Shown: in pieces, positions 11,713-41,230 of the stretch
Layout: each line of letters begins with the position of its first letter
Position numbering within the stretch: the first letter of the stretch is position 1
Assembly (NCBI GenBank): GCA_017654855.1
Contig: CM030334.1
Location: forward strand, 1,302,001-1,366,000
Direction: 5' to 3'
Source: Podospora anserina
Taxonomy: Eukaryota
Length of the DNA stretch: 64,000 nt
Translations under genes and position numbers: made by a program
Notes under the pieces: model-generated
Seen by the model: only the letters and a program-made list of their open reading frames with translations
What the model was told of the DNA's origin: nothing
Database searches by the model: none

Positions 11713-14700
11713 TCAAAGCCGCCCACTGACAACCTCCTTCTCAAAAATCTTCACCCCATAAACATCATAAAACCTCATATCTCCCACCGTCTCAATCTTG
11801 CTCGCCCTGAACCTCTCATCATCTTCCTCATCCCCACTATCCTCACTCTCATCACTACTCCCATTCCCCCCAATGGCATCCAACCACGCCGAGTTTCCGC
11901 TCCCGTCAGTTTCGATAGACGGTAGTATCAACCCCGAGCTCGTACTCCCCAGCCCCGTCGTGGCACTCATCTTCTTGACCTTGTTATTCTTCTCCTTTTT
12001 GCGCTTGGGCAAGTCCCTCGCCCTGATAAGCCGCTCTACCCTGTCGTCGTCATCGATCGAGATCCACTCCAGCTTTAGGTGAGGGTGATGAGAGAGGTTA
12101 TCAATCAAAAACTTCTTCGTCTCCCTCATGACCCAGACACACGTGTCCTCGTTGCGCAGCTGGGCAATATGCAACGCCCTCAACGACACCAGCCCCGCAA
12201 GCCGCTGCATAAATGTATGCTATTTTTCACGTCAGCACCTTGGTATCAATCAACCAGTCCAAAAGGGGGAAAAAAACATACCATAGTCCTAATACTCATA
12301 CAAGCAGTCAGCTCCTCCAGCACCCTCCCCTTCCTACACAGCAACAAGACCGTCTTCTCGTTCAGATCCCAGCTCGGATCCGCCAAGTTCTTGATCATCA
12401 AGTACTTCAACGTAGGCATGTGCTTCTTTAGCACCAACTTCCGAATCTGTTCGATAGTAGTCGGTGTCCTGGGCGCAAACGACTCAGGCTTATACTTGAA
12501 GTCCCGCTCGAGCATAAACAACTCCTCCACCGCTTCCAGCTCGTGAACAAACGTCAAAAAGGCTGGTGTGACATTGTCGGTAAAGATGTGTCGCAGAGGC
12601 AGAGGGGCTTCCTTGTTGAGTTTGGCCATTTGAGCCCAGATTGGCGCTTGAGGGCCGACGTTCAGGAGCGTCAAGTGACGGAGACATCGGAGGTCGATGG
12701 CCCGGTACAGAACTGAAGCCTTGACCGGGATGAGGTAGATGGCTAGAACCTGGAGAGCGAGACCTCTTGTTGTCCGCAGGTAGTCATTCATCTGCTGGTT
12801 TTTGAGCGCAATCGAGTCAACAGCGGACACGGAGGAAGATGGCCGGGGAATTTGCTTCTCGGCATCGTTGATCTCGGCTTCGACTGTCGTGAGCTCCTTG
12901 TGGATGTCTGCAATGCTCTGGCTGATGGTGTACATCTGCTTCTCAGCCTCGGCGACACGGCTAACATCGACCGGTGTGTCGCTGGAGCGCATCCTCTCAA
13001 TATCCTTTGTCAAGTCCTTAGCTTGAGTCTCAAAGATATCGACCTTTTCAGCCAATGTCTTGAAGTTGGCTTTTTGCGCGGCTAGGTTCGCCATAGCCTT
13101 GTTCACGTCGGCCGACACCACGCTGCCACTCGTGGAGGGCGTGGCCAAGGAAGTCGTGGAGGCAGACGGGGTCATACCGAATTCCTTCGAAGAGGTGTCC
13201 TTGGTTGGGCCATCTGCACCATCAAGCTGGAGAGTCTCCTCGGGCACCTCAATGTCAATATCTTCAGGGGTCACATCATTCTCCTTTTGCTTGTCCTTGG
13301 AAGCGTCTGCAGTGCCATCACTAAAAAGACTGGCAGGCTCTGTCGAGGCCTGTGCGACCGAGGCAGCCCCTGAGCTCTCTGCGGTCGCCGGCTCCTCTGC
13401 CACCGATTCATCTGTCTTTGATGAACTTGAGCTCCCGTTTGTGCTTGGCTTATTTGAATTTTCTGCCCTCTTGTTCATCGTATCTTCAACGTATTTTGTT
13501 GCGGCAGCCTGGAAAGTTTCGAGAATATTCTTTTGGGTAGCATTGACCTCACTTGGATCGGTGTTGTCGTTCAGCTCCTTCACAATCCTGGTCATCACGG
13601 TCTTCAAGGCCTGGGCAAACTCGTGCGTTCCATTGCCCCCGTTCGACTCGACCTTGGTCTCCTTTTCCTTTTCCTTTTCCTTCCCCTTGTCTTTCGGCTT
13701 TTTGGGCGGCTTTTTTACTAGATAGACCTCGACATCCAAGATCCTACCCAGCACCGACTCTTGTGCCTTTTTCTCTTCCATGGCCCGGAAGGCTCTGGCA
13801 GGACCGCTCATGTCATTGGCCATGTTTGAACTAGAGCCAGCCGGGGTAGGCTGGAAATCATCGTCGACATCTGAATCGTCCGGATCCGCCTCGGGGGCAG
13901 GTTTTCTGGCCTGTGAAGCCAGCTTGTCCGAAAAGGAGAGTTTCAGCTTAGTGAGAGTTGCCGAGGAGTTCCGAACACATGATTTGATCTCTGTAACCAT
14001 ATCGAGCGAGTCGATATCCAACACGGAAAGACTCCTCAGATTGCCGAAGCCCGACAGCGTCGGTGGCTCCTTGGAAAGGGGCGTCTTCCGTAAGGCTTTC
14101 GGTCGGTGAGGCTTCGGCATGGGAGGTGGAGGGGGCGGAGGCACATTGACTGTGACGGAGGTCACGGGCACATAAAACCCAGAGGGCGGCGGAGGCAGCG
14201 TCGAAAACGGGGGTGGTGGAGGGGGTAAGTTCGACATGGGAGGTGGTGGCGGGACAGATGTGACGCCCAGCGAGGCTGATGTTGAGGTGGCGGCATTGTA
14301 TGGAAGGGGAGGAGGCGTTTCGTAGATAGAAGGTCCCTCTTGTAACCGAACATGAAGATGGGCCAGTGTCTTGATACTGTGTAGTTCTTTGTAGAGGGTT
14401 CGACTAAGTTCGACACGGATATTCCACCTGAAGAGGAAATTGTCAGTACTGGATGTGCAATAGACCGAGATGGACACACCTGAACCTCTCGAGAGCCCTT
14501 GCCCTGCGCAGCGTCATAAGCAGCAGTGTGTTCATGAACTTTCCGCAGCTGAGATTCGCCAGGTAAGCCTTGTAGGCTGTTTCGGCTTTGTGGCCGGCGC
14601 TGAGAGTGTCCAGAGACAAGTCTCTCAGGTGCTGAGCATAGTTGTAGTCGCTAGTCACAAAAGTGTCGAGACCGCCGGCCAGGCCGTCTATGGGCGAGTC

Positions 14701-17105: not shown

Positions 17106-18217
17106 CATCATCATCATCATCATCATCACCCCCTTCCTGCCTCGTCTGCCGTGACTTCTCCGGCCCTGACACGGTCGCCGCCCAGTACCCCTACACCTCC
17201 CTCCCCAGGCAGGACCCCATCTCCTACCTAGCCCACCACCTCTGCTCCCCTTTCCCCTCGCCCACCGACAAAGCCCGCGCAATCTTCACCTGGTGCCACC
17301 ACAACATCGCCTACGACGTCCACGGCTTCTTCAACAACTGCATCCCCCGAGGCCTCACACCGGCAGAAACAATCTTTTCGGGAAAAGCCGTCTGCGAAGG
17401 CTACGCAAAAGTCTACGAAGCCATCGCCCGCGCAGCGGGTCTGCACTGCATTGTTGTCGGCGGTCACGGCAAAGGCTACGGCTTCAGCGCCCTCAAAAAA
17501 GGGGAGCGGTGCCCGCCAAAGGACCCGACTGGCCACGCGTGGAACGCGGTCATGATCGATAATGATGAGTGGAAGCTTATTGACCCGTGCTGGGGAGCGG
17601 GGCATTTGGATGGGGGTACGAACGGGTATAAGAAGCAGTTTAGCCCGGGGCAGTTTGCGAGGAGCAATGAGTTTTTCGGAAGGAGTCACTACCCGAGCGA
17701 TGAGAGGCATTTTCACAGGAGGGATGGGAAGGTGCCGAGTTGGGAGGAGTACATCTTGGGGGAGACTGGGGGGGAGGAACCGGCGGGGTGGATGGGGGAT
17801 GCGGAGAGGGAGGGGGGGTTGGATCAGAGTAATTTTGAGCCGAAACAGAAAGAGATTTGTGTTTCGGGGGCGGGGGAGGGAACGGTGACGAGGTTTCAGT
17901 TTGGGAAGGTATGCCCGCATTGGGTGAGTGAGAAGCACGGGAGGGGGAGGCAGATGTTGATTTGTTTGGTTTTTGGGGAGGATGAGAAGAGGGCGGGTGG
18001 GAAGGAGAGGTTCGTGCCGTTGGAGACGGACGGGTTTTGGTGGTGGCTGGATGTGAGGACGAGGGATTTGGGGGGGGTGGGGAAGAGGGTGAGGTTGGTG
18101 GGGATTACGACGGTGGATGGGAGGGATGCGAGGGGGTTGACGGGGGAGGAGTTTAAGGGGGTTGTGGGGAGGAAGGCGTTTGCCATGTGTGGGATGGTGG
18201 ATTGGGTGTTGGTTTGA
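16130..18217 (+). CDS. Pro-rich transglutaminase-like (kyphoscoliosis peptidase/Cyk3-like) protein
   Basis: Single-exon 695-aa ORF. KARAIFTWCHHNIAYD, AVCEGYA (Cys), GHGKG, GHAWNAV (His), LIDPCWGAG (Asp). The N-terminal half carries repeated PPLPxR motifs. Confidence 0.88.
17071..17127 (+). repeat. Coding microsatellite (GCA)n(TCA)n encoding poly-Ala/poly-Ser
   Basis: Direct trinucleotide runs within the transglutaminase-like ORF. Confidence 0.9.
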
Positions 18218-18452
18218 TGATAATGATTGTGGGGATTTGGAAGTGGTTAACACCTAGGAGGATGGGATGGGTGGTTTGTTCCCACTTTGAGACGGACAGA
18301 GACGGACAGACACCCAAAGTGCCGGGAACAGAAAACGGGACCCAAGAGGAAGATGCCTTGGTAGAATCGCAATGTTTTGCTCATTGTATTCACTCTCTGT
18401 TCCCAACGCCGCAAGCCTGCTGATAACCGCGCTAAAAAATGACTTGCTCAAA

Positions 18453-19688
18453 TCAACCCCTAAAACTAACAGCAGGCACCTCCTCCCACCTCGGCAAAAT
18501 ATCCGGCACCGGCCCCAAAGGCGTAATCGACAGCGGGTTGATATTCGTGTGCGATTTCGTGTAATGGAACTTGATGTGGTTGAAGTTTGTCGTGTCCTTG
18601 AACGCGGGGATGTTCCAGTACAGATTCCGCATCCACTTGTGAATAGCAGGGTAGCCGGACCTGATGTCGCGGATGTTGCACTTGAAGTGCTGGACATACA
18701 CAGGCTATTTTCCGTTAGCTCTCTTCCTCTGTTGTCGGGGGGGTTGGAATGATGAACTTGAACTCACATCAAACCTGACAATAGTCACAAACAACCTGAT
18801 ATCCACCTCGGTAAGCCGCTCCCCAAACCAATACGGCCCCTCCGTCCCGTCAGCAAGATGCTTCTCCGCCCGGTCGAGAGCTTCAAACAGAGCCTTGACG
18901 TTGCGTTCGTAGGCCTCTTGGGTGGTGGCAAAGCCAGATTTGTAGACGCCGTTGTTGATGAGGTCGTATTGCCACTCGTGTGTTTCGTCAATCTCCCTTC
19001 TCAAATCCTCAGGATACAGATCCACCGATTTGAACGGCTCGTCGATCAGCCCGTTAAACTGTCTTGATGTCAGCAACCGCCGCTCCCTTTTTCTCCAGTA
19101 AAAAAAAAAAAGGGCTCACCTCCGAATTCAACATCCTCAAAATCTCACTACTCTCATTGTTCACAATCCTCCCCCCCTTCTTATCCCACAACACCGGCAC
19201 CGTAAACCGTCCCTCATACTCCGGGTTCACCCCAAAGTAAACCTCCCTCAAATGACTCAAACGCCCCTCGTGAGGCACCACACCCTCCCCCTTGACATCC
19301 TCCTGCTCAGCCTCCTCATCAGTCACAAACCTCCACCCTTTCGGTCCCATATGCCAGTGGACAACACTAAAGGAGATGATGTCCTCCAGCCCCTTGAGCT
19401 TGCGGGCAATGAGCGTCCTGTTGGCCCAGGGGCAGGCATAGCTCACGTAGAGGTGGTACCGGCCCGCTTCGGGGGGGAACTCGGAGCCGGGGGACGAAGA
19501 AATGAAGGAGCGGAAGGTGGACTGCTGGCGTTTGAACTCGCCTGACTTGTCGGAGGGGTTGACCCAGTTTGTGATTACGTTGTCGTCCTTCTGCACCTCC
19601 TTTCCGGAGGGAGTGTCTTGGGCTGCCTAAAAGGGGGGGGGTGTTAGTTTGGTTGGGAGAGATGGGAGGGGGAGAGGGGTATTACCAT
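18453..19688 (-). CDS. ecm4: Glutathione S-transferase omega-like / glutathionyl-hydroquinone reductase (Ecm4/Gto family)
   Basis: Exons 19688-19686 (ATG only, extendable in frame to 19844), 19626-19120, 19058-18768 and 18704-18453. [90 protein letters not shown]. Confidence 0.92.
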
Positions 19689-24979: not shown

Positions 24980-27820
24980 TCAAAATCCAGCCACAACACT
25001 CAACCCCCTACCCACCGCCTTCACCACTCCCAAAACCGTAAGAACCCCCCTAACCAGCCACATCCCCACACACAACACCCCAAACAGAAACACCACGGCG
25101 CCCACCCCAACCCAGACATCTTCCCACGTTGACTGCGCCAGCTCAAACCGCCTCCTCAGCTCCGACTCGCCGTCAAAAACCGGCTTGACCATCCCCCAGT
25201 GTGCTTCCACCAGTCCAACCACCAAGTTCAGCACCACAACCATCCAGCTCACCACCTCTCTGCACACATCACCAACCTTCAAAGACCCCTCGAACCGCCT
25301 GACCCCCCCCTTGGTGACCGTTGGCGTGTTCCTGTCCCCCGCTAGTGTAGTCTCCAAAGGGGCTAGATCTTGGCCTTGGTCATCCTGCCGATCCCCCTCC
25401 GGCTCCGCCGCGGCCTTGGCTTTCGCTTCCGCCCCACGGGGAAGTCGCCGATGCCGATCCGACATCATTGTTGTTCCTTTGAACCATGCCGACGCCGACA
25501 CCGGAACCGGTACCGTTCGTGTCCCGTCACAAGACGTCGGCTCCTTTATCGGTAAGGCCTGTGGCTCCGTCTTTGGGTCGTGAACGAGATGTGTGAGCGC
25601 TGCTCTGGCTGCTCCTCGTGCAATGGCGTGATCCAGCTCCTCGTCTGCTTCCTGAGCTGGTGACTGATGGTGTGGACGAGGACGGAGGGTAGAGGTGGAC
25701 TTTGGCCAGGATGGGCTTCGGCTCTGAGTGTTTGCGGTGCCGCCTCCTTCCCCGTGTTTCTCCTTTCTCATCGTCTTGCGCATCTCCCTGGGCTCCGACT
25801 CCTCGGTGCCGTCGCCGTCGCCGTCCGGCTTGGCCGTCTTCTCTTCTGGTGTCTCTGGTCCTGGCTCCTCTGTCGCCAGCGACGTAAAAGCGGTCTCTGG
25901 TTTTGGCTCTTCTGGTGTTGGCAGCAAGTCCCGAGCACTTGGTAGCACCGCCACCTCCAGTTCTGTAATGATTGTCGACGTAGCCACTGTCGTGAGAGTC
26001 TCGCTTTCTCCGTCGCTCGGCGAGTTGTTCGGTTGCGTGCCGAGAGGGAAAGCCGGTACCTCTGAACAGACGCTGCTGGGTGTCCGGGTCAGAGACCCCA
26101 GTGATGCGGGACTCGAGCCTTCCATGATCATCGTCATCGGTGACCGAGGCCCGTCTCTCCACTCGTCGACTGGTTCGACGCAAGGACGGCCGTCCACGAG
26201 CGGGGGAGGCTGACCGCGTTCGGAGCCAGTAGTGGTGGTGATGGGTGTGTAGGCAAATCGGGGTCCCCGGTCGTTGTTCGTGCTGCTCGTTCCCCAGAGC
26301 CCCATGGCGGTTGTGTGAGCCTGGTTGCTCTCGTCGAGGCGGCTCAGATCGTCCAGCAGCCTGGCTGCCCAGAGATCCGCCGGCTTCACGTTTTCCAGCT
26401 CCAGGGGCTTGCTACTGGTGATCCTTGGGGGGATCTTGTTCCCCGGTAGACTGTAACGGAGCCAACGCTGTCTGAAGCTGCCCCGATCTGGTTGCTCCTC
26501 CGACTGGCCGTCGCCGGACTTGTTTGTCTCCGGGTGGCCCGAGGCTACACGACGAGGGACCATTGGTGGAAGGCTGAAGCCAAGCGACTTTGGTCTCGGG
26601 AGCGTGTGAGGCTTCAGCTTTGCCGTCTCTGCATTCCCGTCCACCCTGTTGCGTGTCTGGTGATGGTGCTGGTGCCAGGTCGAGACGGCGGGCAGGTTGG
26701 TGTCTCCTGCTCGAAGGGCCGGACGGCTTGCTTGACTTGCCGTCACCGCCGTCGCCTTCCCTAAAAAAGGACCACGAGGTGAACCGGCGCTGACGGGTGT
26801 CCTATGGACCGTGGTTGCCTCGCTGTCCGAAGTATCGGGGGACATCATACTCCTCTGTGACTGCGGTATAGGGCTCAAGTCTGGCTCGGCCACGCAAGCC
26901 CAGGCTTCTCCCTCTTTCCGCCAGACTACATTTCCGCCATGCTGGTTCAGCACTGTTCTGGCCGCCTCCTTTCTCCGCTCCGCCTTTTGGTGCTCCTTTC
27001 TGATCTGAGCCTCAGTTTTGGCAGCAACATATGCCTCGCGCGCATCCTGTGCTGTGTGGGCGAGTGCTGCGAGATGGGAGTCTGTGGGAGAGGACACCGT
27101 TGCGTCTTCGGAGCTCGTGGTTGGAGTGATGACATCCATGACGCCAGTGTGAGGGTTGATGCTAGTGACCCCAAGGAAGTCGCCGCTCTGCTTCAGAGTC
27201 CGTCGTTGCTGGCGAAGCTCTTGCTTTGCGAGGTAGATCTCCCTTGTATCGCCTGTAGACATCGTAGGCTGAGGTGTCGGGATATTGCTTTTCTTTGCCG
27301 TGGCGTTGCCGCGAGGTGCCCAGTCGCGCCGGTCTACCTCAACAGGATGAGGTTTGTCCTGCTTTAGGGCAGAGGTGTTGATCGTCAACCTCGGCAGCGA
27401 TGAAGCAGGTTGCTTGCCCAAAGCGGCTCGCGTGCTCTGCGTCCGACGAGGAATCGGTATGGGCATGTTCCAGCGACTGGCCGGGATGATATCGGAGTCA
27501 CGGGGACCTGTGACGCCGCTCGGGGCACTGCTTGCGGCCGGGACAGGTATACTGCTGCCTTTTTGTCCGTCTGCCGAGGACGAAGAATTTCTTTTGTGTC
27601 GAATAGTTCCACCTCTCTCAGGGCGTTTACTGGGACGAAGCTTGTTGAAGAAGCTTGACATGGACGTGGTGATGTTTCTCCTGCTCCCAGATGGGGGGGA
27701 CCCGTTCGAGCGTCGAGGAGGCAGAGGCTTGACATCTTGACGATTATTCCGGTCGTCCAGTATTCGAAATGGGGAGGGCGACGGTGCCTGGGGCCGTCCG
27801 TGTCGCGAGGGGGCAGACAT
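24980..27820 (-). CDS. Hypothetical 946-aa largely disordered protein with C-terminal hydrophobic (TM-like) segments; candidate -1 frameshift/dual-coding gene
   Basis: Uninterrupted ORF. Ordered-looking block RQQRRTLKQSGDFLGVTSINPHTGVMDVITPTTSS, coiled-coil-like stretch, C-terminal VWVGVGAVVFLFGVLCVGMWLVRGVLTVLGVV. Slippery heptamer at 26768-26762. Confidence 0.8.
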   Translation of the reverse strand: MSAPSRHGRPQAPSPSPFRILDDRNNRQDVKPLPPRRSNGSPPSGSRRNITTSMSSFFNKLRPSKRPERGGTIRHKRNSSSSADGQKGSSIPVPAASSAPSGVTGPRDSDIIPASRWNMPIPIPRRTQSTRAALGKQPASSLPRLTINTSALKQDKPHPVEVDRRDWAPRGNATAKKSNIPTPQPTMSTGDTREIYLAKQELRQQRRTLKQSGDFLGVTSINPHTGVMDVITPTTSSEDATVSSPTDSHLAALAHTAQDAREAYVAAKTEAQIRKEHQKAERRKEAARTVLNQHGGNVVWRKEGEAWACVAEPDLSPIPQSQRSMMSPDTSDSEATTVHRTPVSAGSPRGPFLGKATAVTASQASRPALRAGDTNLPAVSTWHQHHHQTRNRVDGNAETAKLKPHTLPRPKSLGFSLPPMVPRRVASGHPETNKSGDGQSEEQPDRGSFRQRWLRYSLPGNKIPPRITSSKPLELENVKPADLWAARLLDDLSRLDESNQAHTTAMGLWGTSSTNNDRGPRFAYTPITTTTGSERGQPPPLVDGRPCVEPVDEWRDGPRSPMTMIMEGSSPASLGSLTRTPSSVCSEVPAFPLGTQPNNSPSDGESETLTTVATSTIITELEVAVLPSARDLLPTPEEPKPETAFTSLATEEPGPETPEEKTAKPDGDGDGTEESEPREMRKTMRKEKHGEGGGTANTQSRSPSWPKSTSTLRPRPHHQSPAQEADEELDHAIARGAARAALTHLVHDPKTEPQALPIKEPTSCDGTRTVPVPVSASAWFKGTTMMSDRHRRLPRGAEAKAKAAAEPEGDRQDDQGQDLAPLETTLAGDRNTPTVTKGGVRRFEGSLKVGDVCREVVSWMVVVLNLVVGLVEAHWGMVKPVFDGESELRRRFELAQSTWEDVWVGVGAVVFLFGVLCVGMWLVRGVLTVLGVVKAVGRGLSVVAGF

Positions 27821-28668
27821 GTTGAATTCCGGGCAGTAGCTTGTGCAGAGATAATAATGCTCTCTCCCCGGGATGTGATGCTAGCGGTGCGGCTTTGGAG
27901 AGCACCCGCTCGATGAGTCGGATGTGGGATAGGGTGAGGTGAGGTTGGAGGGTCAGTTCAGACAATCAGGTGAACAAACTGGGTACCGTCCAGGTTGCAC
28001 CCAACCCACCCTCATGGCAAGAACAGACGACAACCAGCAGGCAAGTGCCGGTTGTGATCCGGACACTCTCGATCCCGTCTCTCCAAGGTGACTTCCGTCT
28101 GGCTGTGCATATCTCCTTCCATCACAAGCATCGGGCCGGTGATGTTCTTCGTTCCTCCGGAACATGTCTCGGTGCTCAAGCCTAGCAGACCACTTGCCCA
28201 TGATGTCGTGAAGGCTCACTCACAGCTGTGTCTTCCTGACAGGATTAGGAGCGTTCCATTGCTCGTGCTTTGCGTCTTGGGGTCAAACTAGTGCACCCCT
28301 TGTATGAGATAGACGGCACATGTAGTCTAGCACCGTGTGACAGGCGTCAGATTCACGGGTGCTGGCTTGGCGAGCGATCTCACCGCAGTGCCACGTCGTA
28401 GAGAATCTGTACCTAGATGTAAGTTAGAGGTACGGCAGTTTACCATGCCTTTACCGCTGTCACTTCTCACCGTCATGGCAGCTCCCTAAGGTGAGGTAAC
28501 TCGTACATTCTACCTTGCAATTGTATCATCCATACACATTTCCCCCTTCTCCCCCACCATATTTTCCCAACCCAGAATCTGCATCCCCCCCATTGATATA
28601 GACCCTATAATGCAATCCCAAAACTCCCATAAAGCATCAACCCTTTTCGCCCCTTCTCTCATCACCAC

Positions 28669-29161
28669 TCACCAACCCCCCCCCTGACTCCCACTCCAAC
28701 TCCTCCCCCTCCCCTCAATAACCTCATTAAAACCCCCCTCCCCAATCCACTCATTATCCTCCCCATCACCATCCCCCCCATCTCCATCCCCACCACCAAC
28801 CAGCGCATCCCAAACCCTAGGCAACCCCCCAACCCCTCCGCTCAACTCCCTCGGAGCATCATACCACTTCCCCCCCTGTCCCCCCCGCGAATTAATCAAC
28901 CCCATCCACCCCCCCTCCTCAATAACCTGCCTCTCTTGCTCAATCACCCCCTTGACAACCTCCTTCATTCCCATTCCCATTCCCATCCCCTCCCCGCTTT
29001 TGTTAGGCGTAGGACTCGTCCCCATGGTTGGCTGAGATGTCAGACTGCAAGGGTTTATATTCTCCACCAAGAGGTCGACAGCCTTGTTTTTGGTGATGTG
29101 ATTTGTTGTGTGCAGCGCTATGGTGTACAGTGGGCCAGAGAGCAAAGTGTCGGTTGTTGGT

Positions 29162-29217
<56 letters not shown>

Positions 29218-31242
29218 GCTGTTGTTGGTCGAATCCTGCGCTGCTGTTGTTGTCGGTGCTACTGATGATAACACCGCCGCCGGGGGTGAGGGTTCTTTCT
29301 TGATGGTGGTGATCACAGGGGCAGGGGCAGGGGCGGGGGCGGGGGCGGGGGCGGGGGCGGGTATTGGTGCCCCGGGGACGGGGACTGATATCTTGACTTG
29401 GGAGGAGGAGGAGTGAGTTGATGGACTTTGGTGTTTGCTGGTCATGGTGACCGTGGTAGACCGGGACCAGGGGCGCATTTTTTGACCTATCGGGCTAGTT
29501 GTCAAGCTGCGTGCCAAGGAGAGCATGTCATGTAAGAGAGATTCCCATTCCATTTCCTGCTCTGCATCCCCTTCCTCGTCGTCGGCTTCGATTATCCCTT
29601 GCTGGAGGGAGCTCAGACTTAAATTTGGGTGCGAGGTGCGAGGGGAGGGAGCAGCGGGTAGGGGGGTGGGAGGGGTGTAGCTGATTAAGAAGGGGTTGAG
29701 CGCCAGAGAGGGTGGGAACATGGGTGGTCGTTTTGGCGGGAGAGATGGTATCCTCGACACCAGAAACAAGGCTGTTTTGAAGTAGAGGAGGTCAAGAAGA
29801 AGAATGTACAGGTCTGGTGTGTTGGGCGCGATGGAGCCGAATCGGGCGAAGAACTCGGAGATGATAGGGCCGAGACGTTTTGCTCTGGCTCGGAGGCAGG
29901 CTGATTGGCGACCTTCGGGTCGGATGGTCGAGGCGGAGAGCTTGTGCAAAAAGGCCATGGTGTCGTGTTGGAAGGTGGCCATTAGTTTTCTGGCCTCCTT
30001 CGTGTCTGATATCACTGTTGGCCCCTCGGCCGTCTGTAGGCTCGCGCCGTCGTCGTATACCCTCGAGACGTACGACTTCTCCGAAACGACCGGGTGGATA
30101 GCTGTCGTAAAGAAACACGACGTGACTTCTAGCCGGGCAAATAACCGAATGATGTCGGGCATTTCCAATCCGTCTCTCTGATGACTCGTGCCCAGTGGTG
30201 GCCACACAAATATTGATGTGTCGGATAGGCAGTCGAAGACATTAAACGGCATGCTCTGTAATATTCGAAGACCATTGACAAGGTGAGTCACGGCCACCGA
30301 GTGCTTCGACCTGACGGTTTCGAGAAATATAAACGCCAGACAGCAGATGAGTGTAATCCTGACCGAATCCGGACCCGTCGAACCGACATGTCGTTGCAGC
30401 TTTGCGATGGATTTGTTGTACTGCTGAATAACAAACACCTCCAGTGCGTCGCGGGTGAAGCCGTCGAGGACCTTTTGGTCTGGAAACTGAAGCAACGTGT
30501 GAGCCGCCCCGAGGGCCACCACGGCGTGCTTGACCGCCTCATCCTGACAGCAATTCGTCGATGGCGATATCACCTTGTTCCAGAACACGGTATAATGAGA
30601 CAGGTGCTGCGGCATGCTCGGGTCAAACCACGTGGAAGAGTTGGAACGAAACCGGCCAAAGAAGCGTTTTTCCGTGTCGGTCCCGTCAATGTCAGCCGGC
30701 GCAATCCGGCGCATCGACCGCAACGCCTCGCTCCATTGACACGCCTTTACGAATTCCACCTTGGCCAGCTCGGCAGTGCGTGTTGGGTCGGCAGGCGAGG
30801 ACCGGTAGCGGGCGTAGGCCGAGCTGGAACCCTTGTCGTAGCCATCACACGTCCTCCCCGTCGACGTGCACCGAAGACAAGCTGGCTTCTCCTCTCCACA
30901 CTTCACCCGACGGATCCTGTTACCATCACGGTCAGAATCTTTTTCTTGCTGTGTCTCGTCATTACTCACTTGCTGTCGATCCTTGTCAGCCATTGAACCA
31001 CAAAGTGTTCTTCTCAAAACCTACCAGGTGATGCAACCGGTCCTGACTTTTGGTCTGCTCGCTCTCGTCCGCTTCTTGATGTGACCCGAGGCTGTGGTGG
31101 TCGAAGCTGTTGTTGTCACTGATGATGCCGTTGGAGAATTCGTCGCCGATATCGAGGGGCTCGGATTGCTGCTTTTGGTATTTCCCCCTCCGGTCGTCTG
31201 TATATGAAGCGGCGGCGGCAATCTCTGCAGCCCCTCGGCCAT
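28669..31242 (-). CDS. Zn(II)2Cys6 fungal transcription factor with a 3-nt microexon
   Basis: Exons 31242-31025, 30972-30970 (CAA) and 30916-28669. Splicing gives KVRTGCITCKIRRVKCGEEKPACLRCTSTGRTCDGY, a complete CX2CX6CX6CX2CX6C cluster. The middle region AVKHAVVALGAAH...QYNKSIAKL...LICCLAFIFLE...HLVNGLRIL is typical of this family. Confidence 0.9.
29161..29227 (-). repeat. (AAC)n coding microsatellite, poly-Asn in the Zn2Cys6 factor
   Basis: About 20 TTG units on the + strand. A (GGGGCG/GGGGCA)n Pro-Ala repeat lies nearby at about 29317-29361. Confidence 0.9.
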
Positions 31243-33110
31243 AATGCTCGTGGTTCTCTCTCCCCCCTGGGTATACCCGTGCTACTGTGTGTGTGTGTGT
31301 ATGTGTGTGAGCGTGTGTGAGTGTGTGTGAACCAAAACCGAGATCATTCGGAGACAGGAAAAAAAAGAGGTCTTCCCCTCCCTTTTTGGATCTTTTTTGG
31401 TCGTGTTCCAGGGGCAATGTAATGTAAGCCAAGGTGAAGGGTAGGTAGGCAAGTGGACACCGACTGCTTGACACTAATCAATAACCGGGCATAGATGCGC
31501 CCTCACAGATTCAGAACAAGCACACCCACGCAACGGCACGCCGAGAAGCGAAGGAGGAGGAGATGTAGCGAAAAAACAAAAACCCCCATGTCCCCATGTC
31601 TCCATACCTTACCCTCCTCAGATCTTGCATCATTTTTTGAAGGGTAGTTGAAGTAGGAGAGGAAAAAAAGAACTGCCTGGGCCACCTTGGCCCCCCCGTT
31701 TTCTTCCACCACGCCGCCTTCTCTCCCCATCTCACCCACTCAGCTCGAATCCTCTTTTATCCTCTCCATCTTGTTTTTTGCCATCTCTCGCTTGTCCCAG
31801 ATGGTCGACCGAGCCCCGGATCGACTCGAGACGCAAGGTCGGAATCGATGTCACTGAAGCCAAAAATGATGGGTTCACACATGTCGGCGGGCGGCCCAGT
31901 AGCCACATGGCAGCCCCCCCCGGCATCGCCGGCGACGTGCGTCAAGACAACTGCTATTGTATGCATGGAATGGAAGCATCCATCGAACTCTTACTAGACA
32001 GCAGGTTGTCAAGGCAATCGAGCAAACTACCTTTGAGCCCTCTGTCAGTTTGGGGCATGGCAGCAAGGGCTCTGACTAAGATGAAGTTTGAGAAGAAGCA
32101 GTCCGGCGGAGGTGGTCGACGGAGCAGAGGAGTTCTCGCTAAGAATAGCGGTACGGAATGTCGGTGCCTGGTGCCTGGGGAGTTGAGATGGTTGCCTATG
32201 CTTGCAGTTTTTCTGCCCGAGAGGAGTGCTGTGCTGTAGTGGTGATGGTGGTGGTGTGCTCGCCCCGTGGCCCCATCATGGATATCTGACACTCTTCTGA
32301 AGAGCTGGGTGTCCCTCTCGATCAGATCAGTTTCCCATCGACTGATTTGGGCTGATCCCTTCCGTAAACTATCCACTGCCGGCGCGGCGGAGCATGGAGT
32401 TTCGGAAGGTGGTTAATTATTAGTGCATCACCGGAAGCGTTGCGACTCCAGCGTTCCCCGTCGTCCGCTATACCCCGAAGAGTTAGCAGCTCGGCTCGCT
32501 AAAACCCGCCCACGCGTCGAGCCACAGACCTCGGCCAAGCACCGGAGGGGTGTGTCCAAAGACTCGCCGTTGCATCCTGTTTTTGGCATGGCTAAAGACT
32601 GAAGATGTCTGTCTGATGGTGTTTTGGAATGTTTGTGTAACAGCGATGGTTAGATTAGGCAACACGAAAAGCAGCAGCCTCCAAGAATAGGCCCCAGGCA
32701 TCGAGACATACAGAGAGGTCTCAGGTCGGGGTCCCCGGGCTTGCCTTGGGAAGCATCACCATTCCAAATCATCATCACCAATACGATCACTCAGTAGTCT
32801 CAAGAGCAGCGTGTGTTTGCATGCTGCCTGCTCTAGAAACAACAACCTACACCCTACACGTGCAAAAGACGACCGGGGTTCACGACATCGGCCGTTGCGC
32901 CTTCGTCATGCCTCACCCTGCCATCGAAGAAGGACCGAAGGTGAGAGAGCAGAGGAAAGAGTACGGAAGCTACATCGCAGAAAGAGCCAACCCGCCAATC
33001 TTCAAAGCCAATCCCAACCCCCAACCAGAAAACCCCCAGGACGTCGAATAACAACCATCTGTCAGCATCCCACGGCAGTCAGTCTTACAAGATATCATCA
33101 AACCACTATC

Positions 33111-34616
33111 ATGCAAGCATACACCCTCCCAACCCGCAGCTACCGCCGCGACGACAACACCACCGCTTCCGAACCACCCCTCGACCTCCAGACCCCCTCC
33201 AGCGACTCTTACTACAGTAACAGGCGCTCAACAACCCCCCTCCCCTTCATCCGCCACCACCGCAACCGCCGCCGTCTCAACGTCCCAAACACATTCGCCG
33301 GCCTCTAGGAAAAGGACCCGAATCGGTTTCCTCCTCCCTCGCAGCAAACCATTCGCAATGCCGGGTCCTCCCAGGAAAACCGCCCCGACAACAAGGAAAA
33401 CACCCCCTCCAACCTCCCGTCATATTACTCAACCTACTCCCTCCCCCGTAAACCCAGCCCCAGTCCCCCCCCGACAGAGCGAGTGAGATCTCCCTACCGC
33501 CACAGAACCTTCTCTTTTGAATCCCCGCCTGCATCTCCAGAGCTGGTGGTGTACGCCAACCAAGGGGGGTTAGATCTCTCTTGTGCATCCCCAAGGGATG
33601 ACCTCGCCCGACATGATATCAGCCACGCCCAAATCCGATCAGCATCATCCACCTACCCCTCCGACGAACGGGCCCAAAGTCCTGTCTCCCCGCCGTTGAC
33701 GCTTGGGAGGAAAATATTGTCTAGTCTGGCGGGGTATGGATTCAGCGAGGCGGATTTTGATGCTGATGCTTCTTCGGAGGGGGAGGATGACGATGGAGTA
33801 GAGGAGGGGTTGTACCCCGGGGAGAAGAGGTTGAGCCGAGAGGAGGGGGAGATTGCAAGGGTTATATCCGCCGCGAAATCATCACCACCTGGGGTCCAGA
33901 GTCAGGTCTGGGGTCGGGCGGCGTTTAACTTTCCAGCACCGCCCGAGGAAGGGGAAAAGGAAGAGGACGAGGGTTTTGCTTTGCCGGCGCCGGAGTCACC
34001 TCTTCTTGTTGGGCTGGCGGTTGAGGACAGGATGGAACAGGAGGGAGCGGATGAGGATGCTTCCACGAGGTGTTTACCCAGGGTGAGCACTGCGTTTTCG
34101 GGGTTTGAAGGGGAGCATTCTTCTTTCGTACCGCCGCTGCAAGAAGAGGAGCAAGAGCATGTTTCTTTCGGGATGCAGTTGAGGGAGAGGATTAGTGGGC
34201 ATTTTCGGAGGGGAAATGGTAATCATCAGCATCATCATCATCATCATCATCATCGTCGTCGTCATCATCATCATCATTACAAGTCGGGCGGCTCGAGGGC
34301 TGGGGGTGGTGGTTGTGGGAAGGGTTTGGAACGGTTCAAGGAAGAAATCTCAAAGACAAATGTTGGGACGGATGTGAAGAGGTGGTTTGTGAGGGGGCTC
34401 AAGGCAGGGAGGAAGGGGGTTAGGAGGGTCAAGAGGGGGTTGAATCATCATGGGGATGGCGACAAGGGGAGGGAGGGGAAGATGAAAAGGGAGATGAGGC
34501 GGGTGGATGAGAAGCTTGAGAGGGAGAGGGGGAAGTTGAGGAAGAAGCCCAGGAGGGAGGAGAAGGGGCAGAAGAGGGAGGGTTTGAGAGGACGGATTTG
34601 GGGGTTGTTGGTGTAG
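33111..34616 (+). CDS. Hypothetical 501-codon protein interrupted by one in-frame TAG (33306-33308); candidate A-to-I-restored gene, otherwise a pseudogene
   Basis: ATG 33111 (MQAYTLPTRSYRR...NTFAGL), then TAG, then the same frame continues without a stop (EKDPNRFPPPSQQTIRN...PPPTERVRSPYRHR...) into the ORF ending at 34616. His-rich run and basic C-terminus. Confidence 0.7.
34222..34278 (+). repeat. (CAT)n/(CGT)n coding microsatellite (His/Arg run)
   Basis: Encodes HQHHHHHHHHRRRHHHHH. Confidence 0.85.
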
Positions 34617-35022
34617 TTTTCTATCAGGTATCGGTTTGGTGATGCGGGTTGGGGTCTGGTGGTTAGATTAGGTATGGATTAGACGGCTTGGTGGTTTAGG
34701 GTTTGGAGACCGGGGTGATATATTCTGAGCATTATTACCGTCTTTTTCCTGGAGCCGTACAAAACGGTCAGAATAGAGGGCAACTCGAAACGGGTTTTCA
34801 ACTTGTTCACTTGCAAAGAACTGTGCTTTGTCTCTCCGCCGAGATTTCGTCAGTCTGTATGTCTCGAAACCCCCTTTACACGACAGCAACCACACCCAAA
34901 GCTCGGTATTCTTTTGTGGACTTTTGTGTCAGGACTTGGTGTGGTGATGTCTGAGTAAGATTCTTGTTAGACACACATTCGGACCAGTCGGAAGGGACCC
35001 AAGTCGGTAGTTGAGGGGTTTG

Positions 35023-35072
35023 GTGTGTGTGTGTGTGTGTGTGTGTGCGTGTGTATGTGTGTGTGTGTGTGT
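35023..35072. repeat. (GT)n microsatellite
   Basis: Nearly pure GT dinucleotide run in the spacer between convergent genes. Confidence 0.9.
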
Positions 35073-35580
35073 GGGCTAGGGAGGTAGGTACTTTCTGTGC
35101 AACGTTTTACTGCATGGGCAACTCAGGACGGCGAAACACGGGGCTTACATTTTCGTCTACGGAGCGTGGATGTGTTTTGAGGTTTTTGACGGCTGGGCGG
35201 CACAGTAAACGGTGCAAGTTGGATACCTTACCTGAGTACCTAGGTAGGGATAGGATGAATAGGGGAAGGGTTGGGATAGGTGACCATGGCAGTGCAGGGG
35301 CTTGACATTTATGGGTGAGGTGAGGGTACAACCCGTTTTGAGAAGACGGACATACAACCCACACTTGACGAACTACTTTTGATTCACAGAGAGCACTTCC
35401 AAATCACAGTCAAAGGTAGCTAAACGTGTCACCAATCTTGCATGTCACCAAAATCAAGGCGTGGGATCTAATCCATTCCCTCAGCCAAGGTAGTAATAGA
35501 AGTCTAACCGAACAATGTTCCCTCCCCTTCATTCCCAACCTTTGTCATTTCTTCTAGCTAACCTGCCGGCCCTTGAAAAT

Positions 35581-38500
35581 CTACCTAATCTTCACCTTGA
35601 TGTACGGCACCTCCACATCCTCCCCGTCCGCATCCTCCGTCACCACATCAAATATCAGCTCCTTCTGATGCTCGGGAATCTTCTTCTTGCTCACCGTCTC
35701 GACCAGCTCGCTCAACTTCATCGGATACTTGTCCTTTCTCTTCGCAGGCGGGAAGAAGGACGCGTACAGCAAGCTCACGCCCGAGCTCACCATCGAGATC
35801 TCCAGGCCACGGGACTTGAAGTCATCGATCAACTCTTGCAGCGTGACATCATTGAACTCGAAGCGGTCCCAGATCTTGTCAAACGTCACCTTGCCGTCGG
35901 GACCCATGTACTCAACCTTGGGGCTGGCAATCGGCTCGCTGAAGCCAAAAAAGGGCAGGGCCAAGTTGATGAAGCCGTTCTTGTACTGCTCGATGTCGTC
36001 CTTGCCGTCGATGATCTTGAACAGCTCAAGGATGACCAGGCCGGTGACCAACGCCGTGGTGGTGGCGATGGCGGGAATGATCTTGCCGGCGATGAACTTG
36101 GTCTTGTGCCTATCGGCCTGCTCGATCTTGTAGTTGTCGGCACGCAGGTTGCTGGCGGCCGTGATGAAGTCAATGTGGTGGTTAGTATCATCATCCTTCT
36201 CAAACTCGACAGGAGTGAGCTTGAAGCCGGCAAGGGACTTGGGATCGGGAAGCTGCTTGATCAGGTTGCTCAGCTCAGCTTCATCATCAAAGGCAGCGCC
36301 GGCGTTCGGATCCTAAAACAAGTCAGCGAGATCATTCTAGGGTTCCTCTTCAGGCAAGACTTACAGGCTCCTTCTCGTCGGCCTGAATCTTGACGTTGGA
36401 ATCAGGAGAAAAGTCGGGAACAATCATCGACTCCAAGGCCTGGATGTAATCCTGCCTTGTCTTGTCCTTGACATTGATATTGTAATTGAAGGCATGCAGG
36501 TTGGTCGCCGCCACGATGAAGCTGTAGTGAGTGGGATTGTTCACATCAAACTTCAACGGATCAGGCGCGCGCTTCGGCCCAGACCAGAATGGGGTGCCGG
36601 TAGACGAGACAGAGTCCTTGGGGAAGTTGTAGAGCAGCTGCTGAATAGCATTGTTGTATTGCTTCTCGAACAGCATGCGACCCCACTGAACGCAGTCCTC
36701 AAAGGTGAGAGCCCGGTCATTCTTGAGGTAATCGAGGAGCATCTCGAGGGTGGCCTTCTCGTTGCCGCCCTGCTTCAGAGTGGTCTCGAGGTAGTTGGAC
36801 TGGGTAAGATAGAGGTTGGCTGTCTCGGCAGGCTTGACAAACGAGCTCTCAAACAACTCACGAGCCCACGCAATGGTGTGCTCGATCTTGTTGGGGAAAC
36901 TGCGCAGAGTGCACATGGGGAAGGACTGCTCGGGGGGATCCTGAGAGGAGGAGTATGACTCGGTGATCTTGGGAAGGACAACCTGGGTGTTGCCCTTGGT
37001 ACCAAGAGTACCGCTCTCCAGCAGAGGCTTGTGGAAGAAGACGCATCTCCTGTCGACATATGTTCTCGCCTCAACGTTGTCGAGCGCATTGGTAACACCG
37101 TCCAAGTCGTTCCAGAAATCCTCGTTAAAGATGTGCTCTGTCTCGGGGCTGACACGGTCCTTCAGGGTGACGATGTGGCCGACCAATTCAGGGTTCATCG
37201 CCTGAACTGCCCTGGCGGCACAGTCGCTCTTCATCTGGCCGACATCCTTGGGCCTGAAGAGGAACTGCCTGTTGAGGTTGCTCTTCTCGATGGAATCCAT
37301 GTCGGTAACAGTGATCTTGCCGCGAGGACCGGTTCCGAGACCGATCATGGCCCAGTTCTTGAGCATTTCGCAGCCGATAGCACCGGCACCGACGAGGAAC
37401 TGTCTGACGTTGGCGACCTTGTCTTGGAACTCGCGGCCAAAGACGGCAATTTGGCCATCATAGCGAGCTCCGGTGGGCTGGCAGAGCTCCTCGGTGCGGG
37501 CAACACTCGTTGGGAGTGATTCAAGCGAGTCAAAGTACATGAACTGCTGCACGGGGTTGAACTTTCCAGACACAGCCTTGAGCACTTCTTGAGCCGCGAG
37601 GCCGCCGAAGAAGGCGGCCATTGGGTTCAGGTCACCAGTAGCCTGGTAGCTGAGCTCCTTCAGGAGCTTCTCATCCCACTCCACCTCGATTCCCTCGGCT
37701 TGGGCGAACTGCTTGGCCGAGCTGATCACGACAAGCGCATCCTCATCGTTCATGGGCCGGGGAAGACGACCATGGGTCTGGGCAAAGGCATGCACGGCTT
37801 GGAATCCGATGTGAAGCTGTTGTGGGCGATCAAACTTGGCAAAATCAGAGATGACAAATTCAGGCTCTTTCATGGCAGCAGAAATGCTCTTGAAGCTGAT
37901 GAACTTGGGCATCTTGACCTGCTGATAGAGACCTCCGCGCTTGTACTGCCCGAGACCTGACACGTCACCGATGGAAAAGGTGTATGGGCCCCTGACCGTG
38001 ACCTTTCGGGGCTCGGCACCGTTGAGACCCTCCATACCCTCCACCTCGGTAAACGTCACGTAGTCGCCATCCTCCAGCCCGTGCCGCGTCTCATCGAGGG
38101 CAGAGACCAGACCCTCCTCGTCGATGCCTGCCACTATACCACTGACGGGGTTCTCGCCACTGGAGTCGAGCACGGTGAAGTTGTTGCCGAAATCGCAAAA
38201 GATGTTGGCGAACAGGCCGGCTGTCTCGGCGGCGATAAAGTAGATGCCCTTCTCGTGGCAGTAGTCGCCGACGAGGACCTTGAGGTGCTGGGGCGTATTT
38301 GTTAGAACCACGACCTGGTACTTGTCAAACTGCGACAGGTTCTCGCCAAGACTATCAGATTGGTGAATGTGAACTGGTGTGTAGGCGTTGAGCTCGGCGA
38401 CACGTGGGGCCACGACCTGGTCGCGAGGCTTGCCGACGTCTTCGGGATGCAGGAAGAAGTTGGAAGAGAGGTCTGCGATGGCGACCGGGGCGGGATCGAA

Positions 38501-38808
38501 GAGGGAGACGCTCTTCACACCGGCGAGGGCGATGTTCTTTGCGATTTCGACACCGAGACCCTTTTGACCAACGATGAGGACGTTGGAAGCGCCCATGCGC
38601 TTCATGGCCTCGTGGCCCAAGACATAGAGCTGTCGGCTGTAGAGCGACTCGTCGATTTCGGTGGTGCCCACGACCGACTCGTCGACCTGCATCCGGGTGA
38701 CGAGGTCGACCTCCTCGGGGAGCTTCTTGTCCTGGATGGCATCAGGAGCAGTCAGTTTTGAGCCTGTCGGAGCTAGGGTTAACCAGCAAGGAGAAGACGA
38801 ACAGTCAT
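35581..38808 (-). CDS. uba1: Ubiquitin-activating enzyme E1
   Basis: Exons 38808-38803 (ATG ACT), 38731-36365 and 36312-35581. [47 protein letters not shown], active-site [45 protein letters not shown]. Confidence 0.98.
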
Positions 38809-39736
38809 GGTTTTCTTGAGGGAGATAGGCAGATCCCCGTCGGATACTTTGCGTTTCCCCAGCTTGACAGGTTTATGTGATGGCTGGTGGAGTGGTTTTT
38901 GGATTGTTGATGGTGGTTTGGGTGGTATTGCGGTTGCACCGGGCGAGGCGGCAGTTGAGTTGACGGGTAGAGTAGAGAGTTGGCGGTGCGAGGTCCCGGT
39001 CACAGGTCAGCCCCGCCACCGAGCTGGACTGCGGACTGCGCTGCGGGGGATGATGCGATGGATGGTTGGCTGGGTGCCTTGTGAGCTACCCTGGAGTGTA
39101 GAGTGGGGGCAGTGACAGCCTGGAAGTAACAGTAACAACGATGCCAACGGTTTTATTATTTGAAATGGTAAGTGTTGGTCTGTCTCTGACGCCGATGTTT
39201 GCAATTTTGTATCTATTATTACCAACAGAGAGCTCGCCTCACAGTAAAAGACAGCTTTTGTTTCGAGCTGTCAGAGCTGCATGGAATCTGATGGTGATTT
39301 CTAACCATCCATGGCCCATGGGCCATGATGGAATGCGGTTCCACCCCCTGGGGCTGCCTAGTGGGGCAACTGGCCCCGCCTTTCCCGCCAGGTACCCTTG
39401 GCCGTGCAATTGATGAGAAGGAACAACTACTGTTTCGCTCATCGACTTTTGACTTCGATTACAACTTTTTTCCCGATGAGCTTCTTTCATGGTCGGGGAC
39501 GGCAAGAGTCATGATGCGTGATTTTGATGCTTCCAAGTGGGTAATAGAAGTCTTTCTTTTTCTCTCTCCGACACACACATCGTCGATGAAAAGAGATATC
39601 TGGCAGGATAGGTATAACCCTAGAAATACAAAAGGGCTTGCTAATGGCAACAGAACGTAAGGCTCAAACTTCCAATATCTCCTCTCTTGCTTGTGTCAAA
39701 AACCAAAGAATCTCTCCACCACAAAGTCGTGTTGAA

Positions 39737-40364
39737 TCACTGAACGGCTTTTAGATAGACGTCACTAAGGTAGGCAGAAGCAGGGTTAGCAGAGGTTCAG
39801 AGGCTCAGATGAGTCAAGCCAGTCGGTGAGTGTCAAGAGAGCACTTACAAGATCAGATCCGCATTGGGTGGGATGTGGCCGCGGAATCCTCTGTTAACAA
39901 GCGCTTGGTTAGTCATTGTCTGTGACTAATCGCAGTATAGGTTGGTAAGGTAACTAGTAGTCGCGCATACTTTTCGCCATAGCCATAGTCGCTGGTGATA
40001 TCAAGCGTGGCTCTCTCGCCAACCCTCATGTCGAGGACCGCCTCATCCCAACCTGGATATACTGTCAGCTGACAGCTTGTCACAGCGGTCCTGTTACTCG
40101 ACATGCGTACCTCTAATGAGTTTCCCGATCCCGATCTGAGTGGAAAAGTCTCCTCGACCGACGGAGGAGTCAAACCTGAGGTAGGGGTGATCGTGTTAGT
40201 TGGTTGCATTTAGAGAGAGAGAAGCAGGTTGTCACTCACTCCTGGCCCTTGTTTTCTGGTTGGCTGGCGTCTTTTAACCAGCCAGTGTACTCGATGACGA
40301 CTGTTTGTCCAGGGGCAGGTGAAGGTCCGGTCCCGTGGACATGGGTTATTCTTGTGACGCCCAT
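39737..40364 (-). CDS. FKBP12-type peptidyl-prolyl cis-trans isomerase (113 aa, 5 exons)
   Basis: Exons 40364-40240, 40175-40111, 40052-39971, 39890-39849 and 39764-39737 total 342 nt. MGVTRITHVHGTG...IEYTGWL...FDSSVGRGDFSTQIGIGKLIRGWDEAVLDMRVGERATLDITSDYGYGEKGFRGHIPPNADLIFDVYLKAVQ. TATATAAAA at about 40512-40520. Confidence 0.95.
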
Positions 40365-41230
40365 GATGCTGTTGATCTGTGGGGTTGTTGGAGTTGTTGG
40401 AGGATGTAGAGTGTGAGAGTCAAAGGTAGTCGTAACGAGCTCGGAAAAGGACGGACAAGAGTGTGGCATGGTCTGGAAAGCAACGTAGGATCTGGAGACG
40501 AGCCTTGTCCTTTTTATATATCAGGACCCTTCGTCTTGAGGTCCCCTCAGTACCTACATGGTACCTCGGGGCTCGGAAGCCACGGCCGGTACTTTGTCGC
40601 TGCTAAAACACTGACTGACAGATCAGATGGGAGATGGCCGTGTCGATCGATTCCCGTGCCCCCGTCACCGGCCAGTCCCCAGTGGTTCTATGCTAGCTCG
40701 ACCCTGCAATCTTAGTCTGCGGTGCTGGTGTTGGTGGCATCCCACATCGCATCCAGGATGCTGTGATGGATGAATCTGGTCGCCGAACTGGTGTGTAAGA
40801 CCCCGGTCCTGGTTGGCTGCACGGCAGAAGCAGCAGCTAGATCTGGCGCGGGGCTATCCGTGGGGTTTGGTCTTCTCGAAGCGAGATTCTCTGATGACCC
40901 TCTGTGACCCCTTCACTTTTACCGCATGCTGCATGTACCCAACCTGCCAATCTGCTTTTTTTGCATTCCCCAACACCAAGATATTGGGATGGCCTTTGAA
41001 CACGGGAAACGCCTAAGCGGTACGTAGCGGCAAGGGTGGGCACCACCACGGGCCGACGCCGACAACGGTCCATCACCCCCCTAGGTTACCTTCAGGAGAG
41101 AAACCTAGGTACTGTGTAGGGTAGCTTCGAACCTCGTCCCAGCACAGCGGTGGGACAAGGGTGTAGCTTGTAGCGAAAAAGACCCGCCTGTGCCACCAAA
41201 CCGTTGCTGAACGGTGTGAACCTCACTCAA

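Follow-up and report, generated by a model that had tools for sequence, protein, structure and literature searches.

The transcribed and conserved Podospora anserina gene Pa_3_3680 carries an in-frame UAG at codon 66 and is a candidate for editing-dependent expression

The window analyzed here, a stretch of 64,000 nucleotides (nt) of Podospora anserina DNA (contig CM030334.1, positions 1,302,001 to 1,366,000), contains on its plus strand, at 33111-34616, a long reading frame interrupted by a single in-frame stop codon. The frame starts at an ATG (33111-33113) and runs through 65 sense codons (33111-33305, MQAYTLP...NTFAGL), a coding segment recognized by sequence, conservation and codon-position GC content, to CTC TAG GAA, where the TAG at 33306-33308 occupies codon 66 and the A at 33307 is the candidate edited adenosine. 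From there the same frame continues for 435 further open codons (33309-34616) to a terminal TAG at 34614-34616. The stop-to-stop open reading frames (ORFs) flanking the internal TAG span 32691-33308 and 33309-34616. The first in-frame ATG 3' of the internal stop is located at 34032-34034 (codon 308), and codons 67-307 contain none. When the window was read again, the start, the two stops and a next in-frame ATG at about 34032 were found as given in a preliminary description of this DNA.

By its protein matches, the gene is P. anserina Pa_3_3680 (PODANS_3_3680). A protein search with the frame read through the TAG gave seven matches at E ≤ 0.001 among the 8000 candidates scored, the best being Podospora pseudoanserina QC764_303680 (92% identity, 100% coverage) and PODANS_3_3680 of P. 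anserina S mat+. Compared with the 436-residue PODANS_3_3680 model, the window shows only I81F and one His as differences, while at seven other variable columns it sides with S mat+ against the sister species; it therefore represents another P. anserina strain than S mat+. A literature search on the locus name Pa_3_3680 found no paper. Within the one ORF, the coding-strand GC skew flips from -0.56 at 33000-33299 to +0.73 at 34350-34649, because the N-terminal half of the protein is rich in Pro, Ser and Thr and the C-terminal half in Gly, Glu, Arg and Lys.

In the window, ORF pairs joined by a single stop are common. A scan for such pairs (each ORF of at least 60 codons, their sum at least 350) returned 15, at least four of which have the stop within a GTRAGT/GTAGGT-type donor, a sign of an in-frame intron, one of them RNA-verified. 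The case for Pa_3_3680 therefore rests on evidence beyond the ORF pattern, and the features that distinguish the locus are unspliced RNA contigs, the GC content at the third position of the upstream codons, and protein conservation that flanks the stop and runs through it. Two further long ORF pairs with a single in-frame TAG, at 13027-14109 (plus strand, TAG 13723) and 17228-18763 (minus strand, TAG 18256), lie outside the RNA-covered stretch and may be in-frame introns, chance or more stop-interrupted genes.

Over the 65 upstream codons, the GC content at codon positions 1, 2 and 3 is 0.55, 0.55 and 0.80, and the protein start MQAYTLP is common to the window and the Triangularia models. Residues 1-65 are identical at 37/55 positions to T. 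setosa, 42/54 to T. verruculosa and 24/59 to Diplogelasinospora grovesii, and the two Triangularia values compare with 102/166 and 114/212 (T. setosa) and 109/169 and 119/210 (T. verruculosa) for the rest of the protein. Judging from these alignments, the 65 upstream codons are conserved no less than the remainder. The D. grovesii protein (P0007) aligns its RRRLNIPNTFAGLWEKDANR with RRRLNVPNTFAGL, the stop and EKDPNR of the window, and carries a Trp at the TAG codon (GLWEKD). Residues 58-78, which surround the stop, are identical to D. grovesii at 14/19 positions, whereas the flanks are lower (24/59 for residues 1-65 and 68/158 for residues 79-250). On this evidence, the region around the TAG is coding. 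A lack of conservation upstream of the TAG, which the preliminary description had named as a possible refutation, was thus not what other genera showed. In the comparison of orthologs that it had proposed, the coding sequence is conserved before and after the stop, and the TAG codon is aligned with a W in D. grovesii but with an R in the N. crassa model.

A profile built from eight sequences was run against 1.84 billion representatives and gave 37 proteins at E ≤ 0.001. Ten of these were looked up by name and all belong to the Sordariales (Cercophora, Triangularia, Diplogelasinospora, P. fimiseda, Cladorrhinum, P. australis, Neurospora crassa GE21DRAFT_1274777, a Naviculisporaceae species and P. 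didyma are among the names), so that the protein appears, by the names obtained, to be restricted to this order. Searches with residues 1-100 of the read-through protein gave four candidates among shorter proteins, none significant, and three matches among proteins of similar length, none new. A scan of metagenomes for ortholog DNA carrying the two best motifs of the family matched 55 stretches, with no relative among them. Pfam families were found in none of four family members. The AlphaFold2 model, made from a 21-sequence alignment, has a mean predicted local distance difference test score (pLDDT) of 53.9 and a predicted template-modeling score (pTM) of 0.24, and contains only short helices (198-208, 243-256, 353-362, 422-430, 454-477 and 496-500); the ESM Atlas model of the D. 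grovesii protein has a pLDDT of 0.42. In the ESM Atlas function search, the best feature score was 0.86, below the 0.9 bar for a lead, and structure comparison gave template-modeling (TM) scores of at most 0.27. On these models, the protein is predicted to be largely disordered, with short conserved motifs (HRTFSFESPP.SPEL, GRRILSSLEAYGFS, STxCLPRVST and VKKWFVRQFRAGRKG).

Ten of the 14 invariant columns of the 21-sequence alignment fall between codon 66 and Met308. The UAG and the next in-frame AUG (codon 308) flank the conserved core (residues about 130-330), which can therefore be obtained only if codon 66 is decoded. This bears on an alternative in which the unedited UAG is read through, or in which the 65-codon ORF acts as a regulatory upstream ORF and translation re-initiates at a non-AUG codon or at Met308. 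Such a reading agrees with a dominant mRNA that carries the UAG and with a 65-residue ORF that is conserved by itself (67-78% to Triangularia), but re-initiation at Met308 would forfeit the ten invariant columns, codons 67-307 offer no in-frame AUG, and conservation runs unbroken across the stop in D. grovesii. UAG GAA is not known to be a read-through context, which also counts against read-through, and we regard the alternative as highly improbable.

Of 23 sequencing runs listed, 20 contained the stretch; none is recorded as RNA, and all are available as Logan contigs. Four runs from four studies, with no record of the tissue of origin, were placed on 27000-41000. They consist of RNA, as seen from seven CT..AC joints that correspond to spliced introns in the minus-strand neighbors and from the presence of adapter tails. 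In all four, contigs extend from 31914, 31927, 32545 or 32786 to 34211 without a joint, are broken only at a His-codon repeat (34211/34287) and then proceed to 34754-34809, with an adapter-bearing loose end at 34754. The minimal transcribed span is 32786-34809, with no joint inside. The repeat itself, a CAT/CGT run on the plus strand encoding His and Arg (34212-34286, HQHHHHHHHHRRRHHHHH), differs in length among species. The dominant transcript is unspliced across the TAG, and a minority isoform is compatible with the contigs. Splicing across the site, which the preliminary description had considered as a way of disproving its view of the gene, left no joint in the contigs of any of the four runs.

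Upstream of the gene, 31914-32786 is transcribed in three of the four runs, contiguous with the contig of the gene and adjoining the 5' end of a divergent Zn2Cys6 gene. Its RNA may belong to a long 5' leader of Pa_3_3680 or to the leader of the neighbor, or may be a separate transcript. The ORFs 31652-32239 (plus strand) and 31954-32412 (minus strand) have no Pfam match. An upstream ORF of 47 codons, read from the sequence in another frame of the plus strand (32909-33051, ATG at 32909 to TAA at 33049-33051), lies in the transcribed leader, inside the RNA contigs of all four runs. The run of C at 31914-31921 is a homopolymer length polymorphism: the strain used for the RNA has more C at this place (loose ends of 10-11 C), and the contigs end there.

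Existing gene models deal with the stop in two ways. The model of 2008 (436 residues, 'partial') begins at the codon directly after the TAG and, apart from I81F and one His, equals the downstream coding segment, whereas the later S mat+ model CDP26878.1 (481 residues) removes 33282-33344 and thereby residues 58-78. The models of P. pseudoanserina, P. bellae-mahoneyi, P. pseudopauciseta, P. comata and P. pseudocomata likewise lack residues 58-78, so that these 21 residues are skipped in all six full-length models of the species complex. It had been anticipated in the preliminary description that standard annotation would truncate the gene, and this is what the 436-residue model does, while the others jump over codon 66. 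The same description was mistaken in holding that no plausible in-frame intron exists, as the 63-nt GT..AG stretch 33282-33344 on the plus strand is in frame and would remove the TAG. As a real intron, spliced at a low level or at a particular stage, this stretch would lead to a protein of 480-481 residues without residues 58-78. It has GT..AG borders and a length that is a multiple of three, it is used by the curated S mat+ model and by the five sister-species models, and splicing in a minority isoform would be compatible with the contig data. The meiosis-specific intron of yeast AMA1, as described in PMC10776026, offers a precedent, and intron retention is reported to be common in P. anserina (PMC9801653). 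The donor of the 63-nt stretch is GTCCCA, however, without G at +5, and the stretch has no CTRAY branch site, whereas both features, with CTRAY located 14-25 nt before the 3' end, are found in all seven RNA-verified introns of the neighborhood. The junction 33281/33345 was found in the contigs of none of the four RNA runs, which contain seven joints in neighboring genes, and the stretch encodes the residues of which 14/19 are identical to a D. grovesii exon. The sister-species models may have been transferred from the P. anserina model. Whichever explanation of the stop holds, the intron of the reference and sister-species models is unsupported by RNA, splice signals or conservation; most likely it is a device for passing the stop, and we consider true splicing of 33282-33344 very unlikely. 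A second candidate, the 92-nt stretch with a GTAACA donor that the preliminary description had considered and disfavored, is out of frame and has no joint in the RNA contigs.

In the gene and its leader, the window differs from the RNA contigs at 32196, 32785, 33020, 33351 and 33377. These differences have full depth wherever they are covered, i.e., in all four runs for 33020, 33351 and 33377 and in the three covering runs for 32196 and 32785, where run X8 has no cover. The A>T at 33351 underlies the residue difference I81F from S mat+, which the strain of the RNA runs matches, and the difference at 33377, with A at -1, is synonymous. Further differences, again at full depth in the covering runs, were found at 36799, 37310, 38470-38471, 38486, 38555 and 39662. 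Full-depth differences of this kind are strain differences, and the strain of the window differs from the P. anserina strain of the RNA runs. As the A at 33307 is kept in both, the TAG is present in two P. anserina strains. In addition, a 65-residue ORF ending in ...NTFAGL was called on two Logan contigs (P0015 and P0016). The first of these is a contig of 9940 nt with T41A of the P. comata type and a P. comata-like downstream ORF (P0013), so that a stop, of whichever type, follows codon 65 on a P. comata-like contig too. A sequencing error or a strain-specific polymorphism, both raised in the preliminary description as ways in which its view could fail, does not account for this spread.

Across the seven sequences of the species complex, 32 residue columns of about 470 are variable, no further break of the frame occurs, and the only gaps are the 63-nt skip, the His tract and one N-terminal extension. 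An intact frame despite 32 variable columns mildly favors maintenance of the frame. The N-terminal extension belongs to the P. pseudocomata model and comprises 13 residues (MAVSLTRYHQTTI), the initial Met of which corresponds to ACG at 33072-33074 in the window; in the other species, the model begins at the counterpart of ATG 33111.

Taken together, the stop and its spread, the unspliced transcript, the conservation on both sides and across the stop, and the Trp in one relative were all observed, and we consider editing-dependent expression, in which UAG is converted to UGG as in premature-stop correction (PSC), to be their best explanation and, on balance, a probable one. On this reading, Pa_3_3680 has no intron, codes for a mostly disordered protein of 501 residues that is confined to the Sordariales, and gives an unspliced mRNA with a UAG at codon 66. 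Adenosine-to-inosine (A-to-I) editing of this mRNA in the sexual stage, by ADAT-type Tad2/Tad3 deaminases, would change UAG to UIG, which would be read as UGG (Trp). The edited mRNA would yield GLWEKD, as D. grovesii encodes directly, and the product would have LNVPNTFAGLWEK as a tryptic peptide across codon 66. At other stages, the gene would give either nothing or just the conserved N-terminal peptide of 65 residues. It is from the observations above that we infer editing, its restriction to a stage and any part that the gene may have in sexual development.

The process is established elsewhere. Correction of premature stops from UAG to UGG has been described for Fusarium graminearum (70-71 genes) and N. 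crassa (PMC10776026, PMC11156358, bioRxiv 10.1101/059725). The preferred context given in these publications is U at -1, A or G at +1 and +3 and hairpin loops, and PMC11156358 reports editing in other Sordariales. According to PMC10776026, disordered regions occur in the proteins of 50/71 PSC pseudogenes of F. graminearum, and 16 of these pseudogenes are abundantly transcribed at every stage; the protein type of Pa_3_3680, with a pLDDT of 53.9 and no Pfam family, fits this set. Genes of the ADAT class are reported to be up-regulated during perithecium development in P. anserina (bioRxiv 10.1101/2024.12.09.627484).

Several points weigh against editing-dependent expression and keep our preference for it a guarded one. 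The letter at 33307 is A in all four bridging RNA contigs, with no other letter found; as the contigs keep the majority path only, this bounds an edited form to not being the majority in these four runs. The contigs would also look the same for a transcript of either strand. GLWEKD is present in none of the ten members of the two protein clusters, and Trp at the TAG codon is seen in one relative only, the N. crassa model having R at the aligned place. The models of T. setosa, T. verruculosa, P. fimiseda, Cladorrhinum and Cercophora samala have no codon aligned with the TAG, through either a modeled intron or a real deletion. They break near the TAG with differing borders (RRRLN|GPNR in T. setosa, VPNTFA|AFRN in T. 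verruculosa and VPNT|HENRP in P. fimiseda), the Cladorrhinum model having a larger gap and that of C. samala starting further downstream; from the model sequences, the predictors may have dodged a conserved stop, or equally these may be real deletions in a disordered region. The sequence context adds little and makes for a nearly circular argument. The preliminary description had pointed to a match of U-A-G-G-A with the preferred context, and the A at +3 does fit, but U at -1 and G at +1 are automatic in any UAG. In local folds, A 33307 is unpaired in all four and lies in an 8-nt hairpin loop in two of them (the 31-nt and 51-nt folds), but the hairpin is not stabler than those of shuffled sequences (z = 0.19; 109 and 108 of 200 shuffles fold as well). 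Finally, no catalog of P. anserina mRNA editing was found among the papers listed in a literature search, and the word 'editing' occurs 0 times in PMC9801653, the RNA sequencing (RNA-seq) re-annotation paper for P. anserina. The view of the gene in the preliminary description thus gained coding conservation on both sides, a Trp in D. grovesii, a transcript without splicing and a shared stop, but not the A-to-G change itself: at 33307, where it had proposed to look, only A was found in the dominant contigs of four runs with unrecorded tissues, from which minority variants are dropped.

Some of these points are also expected if the gene is a young pseudogene or hypomorph. On this account, a TGG-to-TAG or CAG-to-TAG nonsense mutation became fixed ancestrally in the P. 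anserina species complex without any rescue, the transcript persists, and the downstream frame is as yet undecayed. The UAG in the dominant RNA contigs of all four runs and the absence of the edited form from the ten cluster members are in line with this, the stop was demonstrated only within the complex, and the complex is young, such that 32 variable columns of about 470 are not obviously below drift for a fast-evolving disordered protein. On the other hand, no second stop or frameshift is present in seven sequences with 32 residue changes, where about 2-3 new stops would be expected under neutrality (a rough estimate not made from DNA), and conservation relative to D. grovesii peaks in the 21 codons around the stop (14/19). 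The models of the five distant species are all discontinuous at codon 66, which would fit an older, maintained stop, and conserved premature stops are described in PMC10776026 as the rule for functional PSC genes. We therefore regard an unrescued mutation as unlikely, though still worth serious consideration, and retain editing of the UAG as the preferred explanation.

If editing occurs, the stop could have a function of its own. The UAG at codon 66 would then be old and kept across the Podosporaceae and neighboring families as a developmental switch between two functional proteins, more than an on/off gate, by which one gene gives two stage-dependent products, a peptide of 65 residues only in vegetative cells and the disordered protein of 501 residues from edited perithecial transcripts. 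Hints in this direction are that residues 1-65 are 67-78% identical to Triangularia, versus 54-64% for the rest, and that variable columns in the species complex number 2/57 in the N-terminal part versus 30/~413 in the rest. We consider such a switch quite unlikely.

The gene is flanked by two genes on the minus strand. The one at 28669-31889 encodes a Zn(2)-Cys(6) transcription factor (PF00172, E = 9e-05). Its intron at 30917-31024 is RNA-verified, and between the sides of this joint the contigs of all four runs have three extra letters. At 35085-41000 lies a gene for a ubiquitin-activating enzyme E1 (ThiF, E1_FCCH, E1_4HB and UBA_E1_SCCH) with introns at 36312-36363 and 38731-38801 and more spliced introns within 39765-40237. 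A (GT)n microsatellite (35020-35075) is located in the intergenic region downstream of Pa_3_3680.

Sexual development, senescence and meiotic drive have long been studied genetically in P. anserina, and Pa_3_3680 provides this model species with a specific candidate for a gene whose expression depends on editing, open to testing by allele swap. If the reading is true, it would add a further gene of the PSC type, in a model species for which no catalog of mRNA editing was found. 'Rescue introns' elsewhere in these annotations may conceal more editing-dependent genes, and if the stop proves old and conserved, it would provide a case from the Sordariales for the debate on whether restorative editing is adaptive.

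Among known systems, yeast AMA1 offers a likeness in principle, as its mRNA carries a block, lifted at one particular stage, that keeps the gene off outside the sexual phase (PMC10776026). The block in AMA1 is a real intron, whereas the candidate intron of Pa_3_3680 has neither the donor nor the branch site of the local introns and shows no splicing in any of the four runs. CHE1 of F. graminearum, the conserved premature stop of which is described in PMC11169179 as edited also in hyphae, resembles Pa_3_3680 in having a premature stop and a transcript that is not restricted to perithecia; unlike CHE1, Pa_3_3680 has shown no editing at any stage. N. crassa, like P. anserina a member of the Sordariales, corrects UAG by sexual-stage A-to-I editing, as described in PMC10776026, and has a relative of the protein (P0022, GE21DRAFT_1274777), the model of which, unlike the window, has R at the aligned place and neither a stop nor W; the R may be due to the DNA or to the gene model. 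The closest comparison is with the PSC pseudogenes of F. graminearum (PUK1, AMD1 and the other members of the 71 PSC genes). As far as tested, no named PSC gene is orthologous to Pa_3_3680, which by the names obtained has no relative outside the Sordariales, and it differs from this set in that it belongs to a different order and that A-to-G was not observed for it. The likeness extends, as far as those genes are described in the published accounts, to a single in-frame UAG in an intact and conserved ORF, a stop near the N-terminus and before the conserved part, a disordered protein with no known domain, the presence of the UAG-bearing transcript, and a gene mis-modeled by standard annotation.

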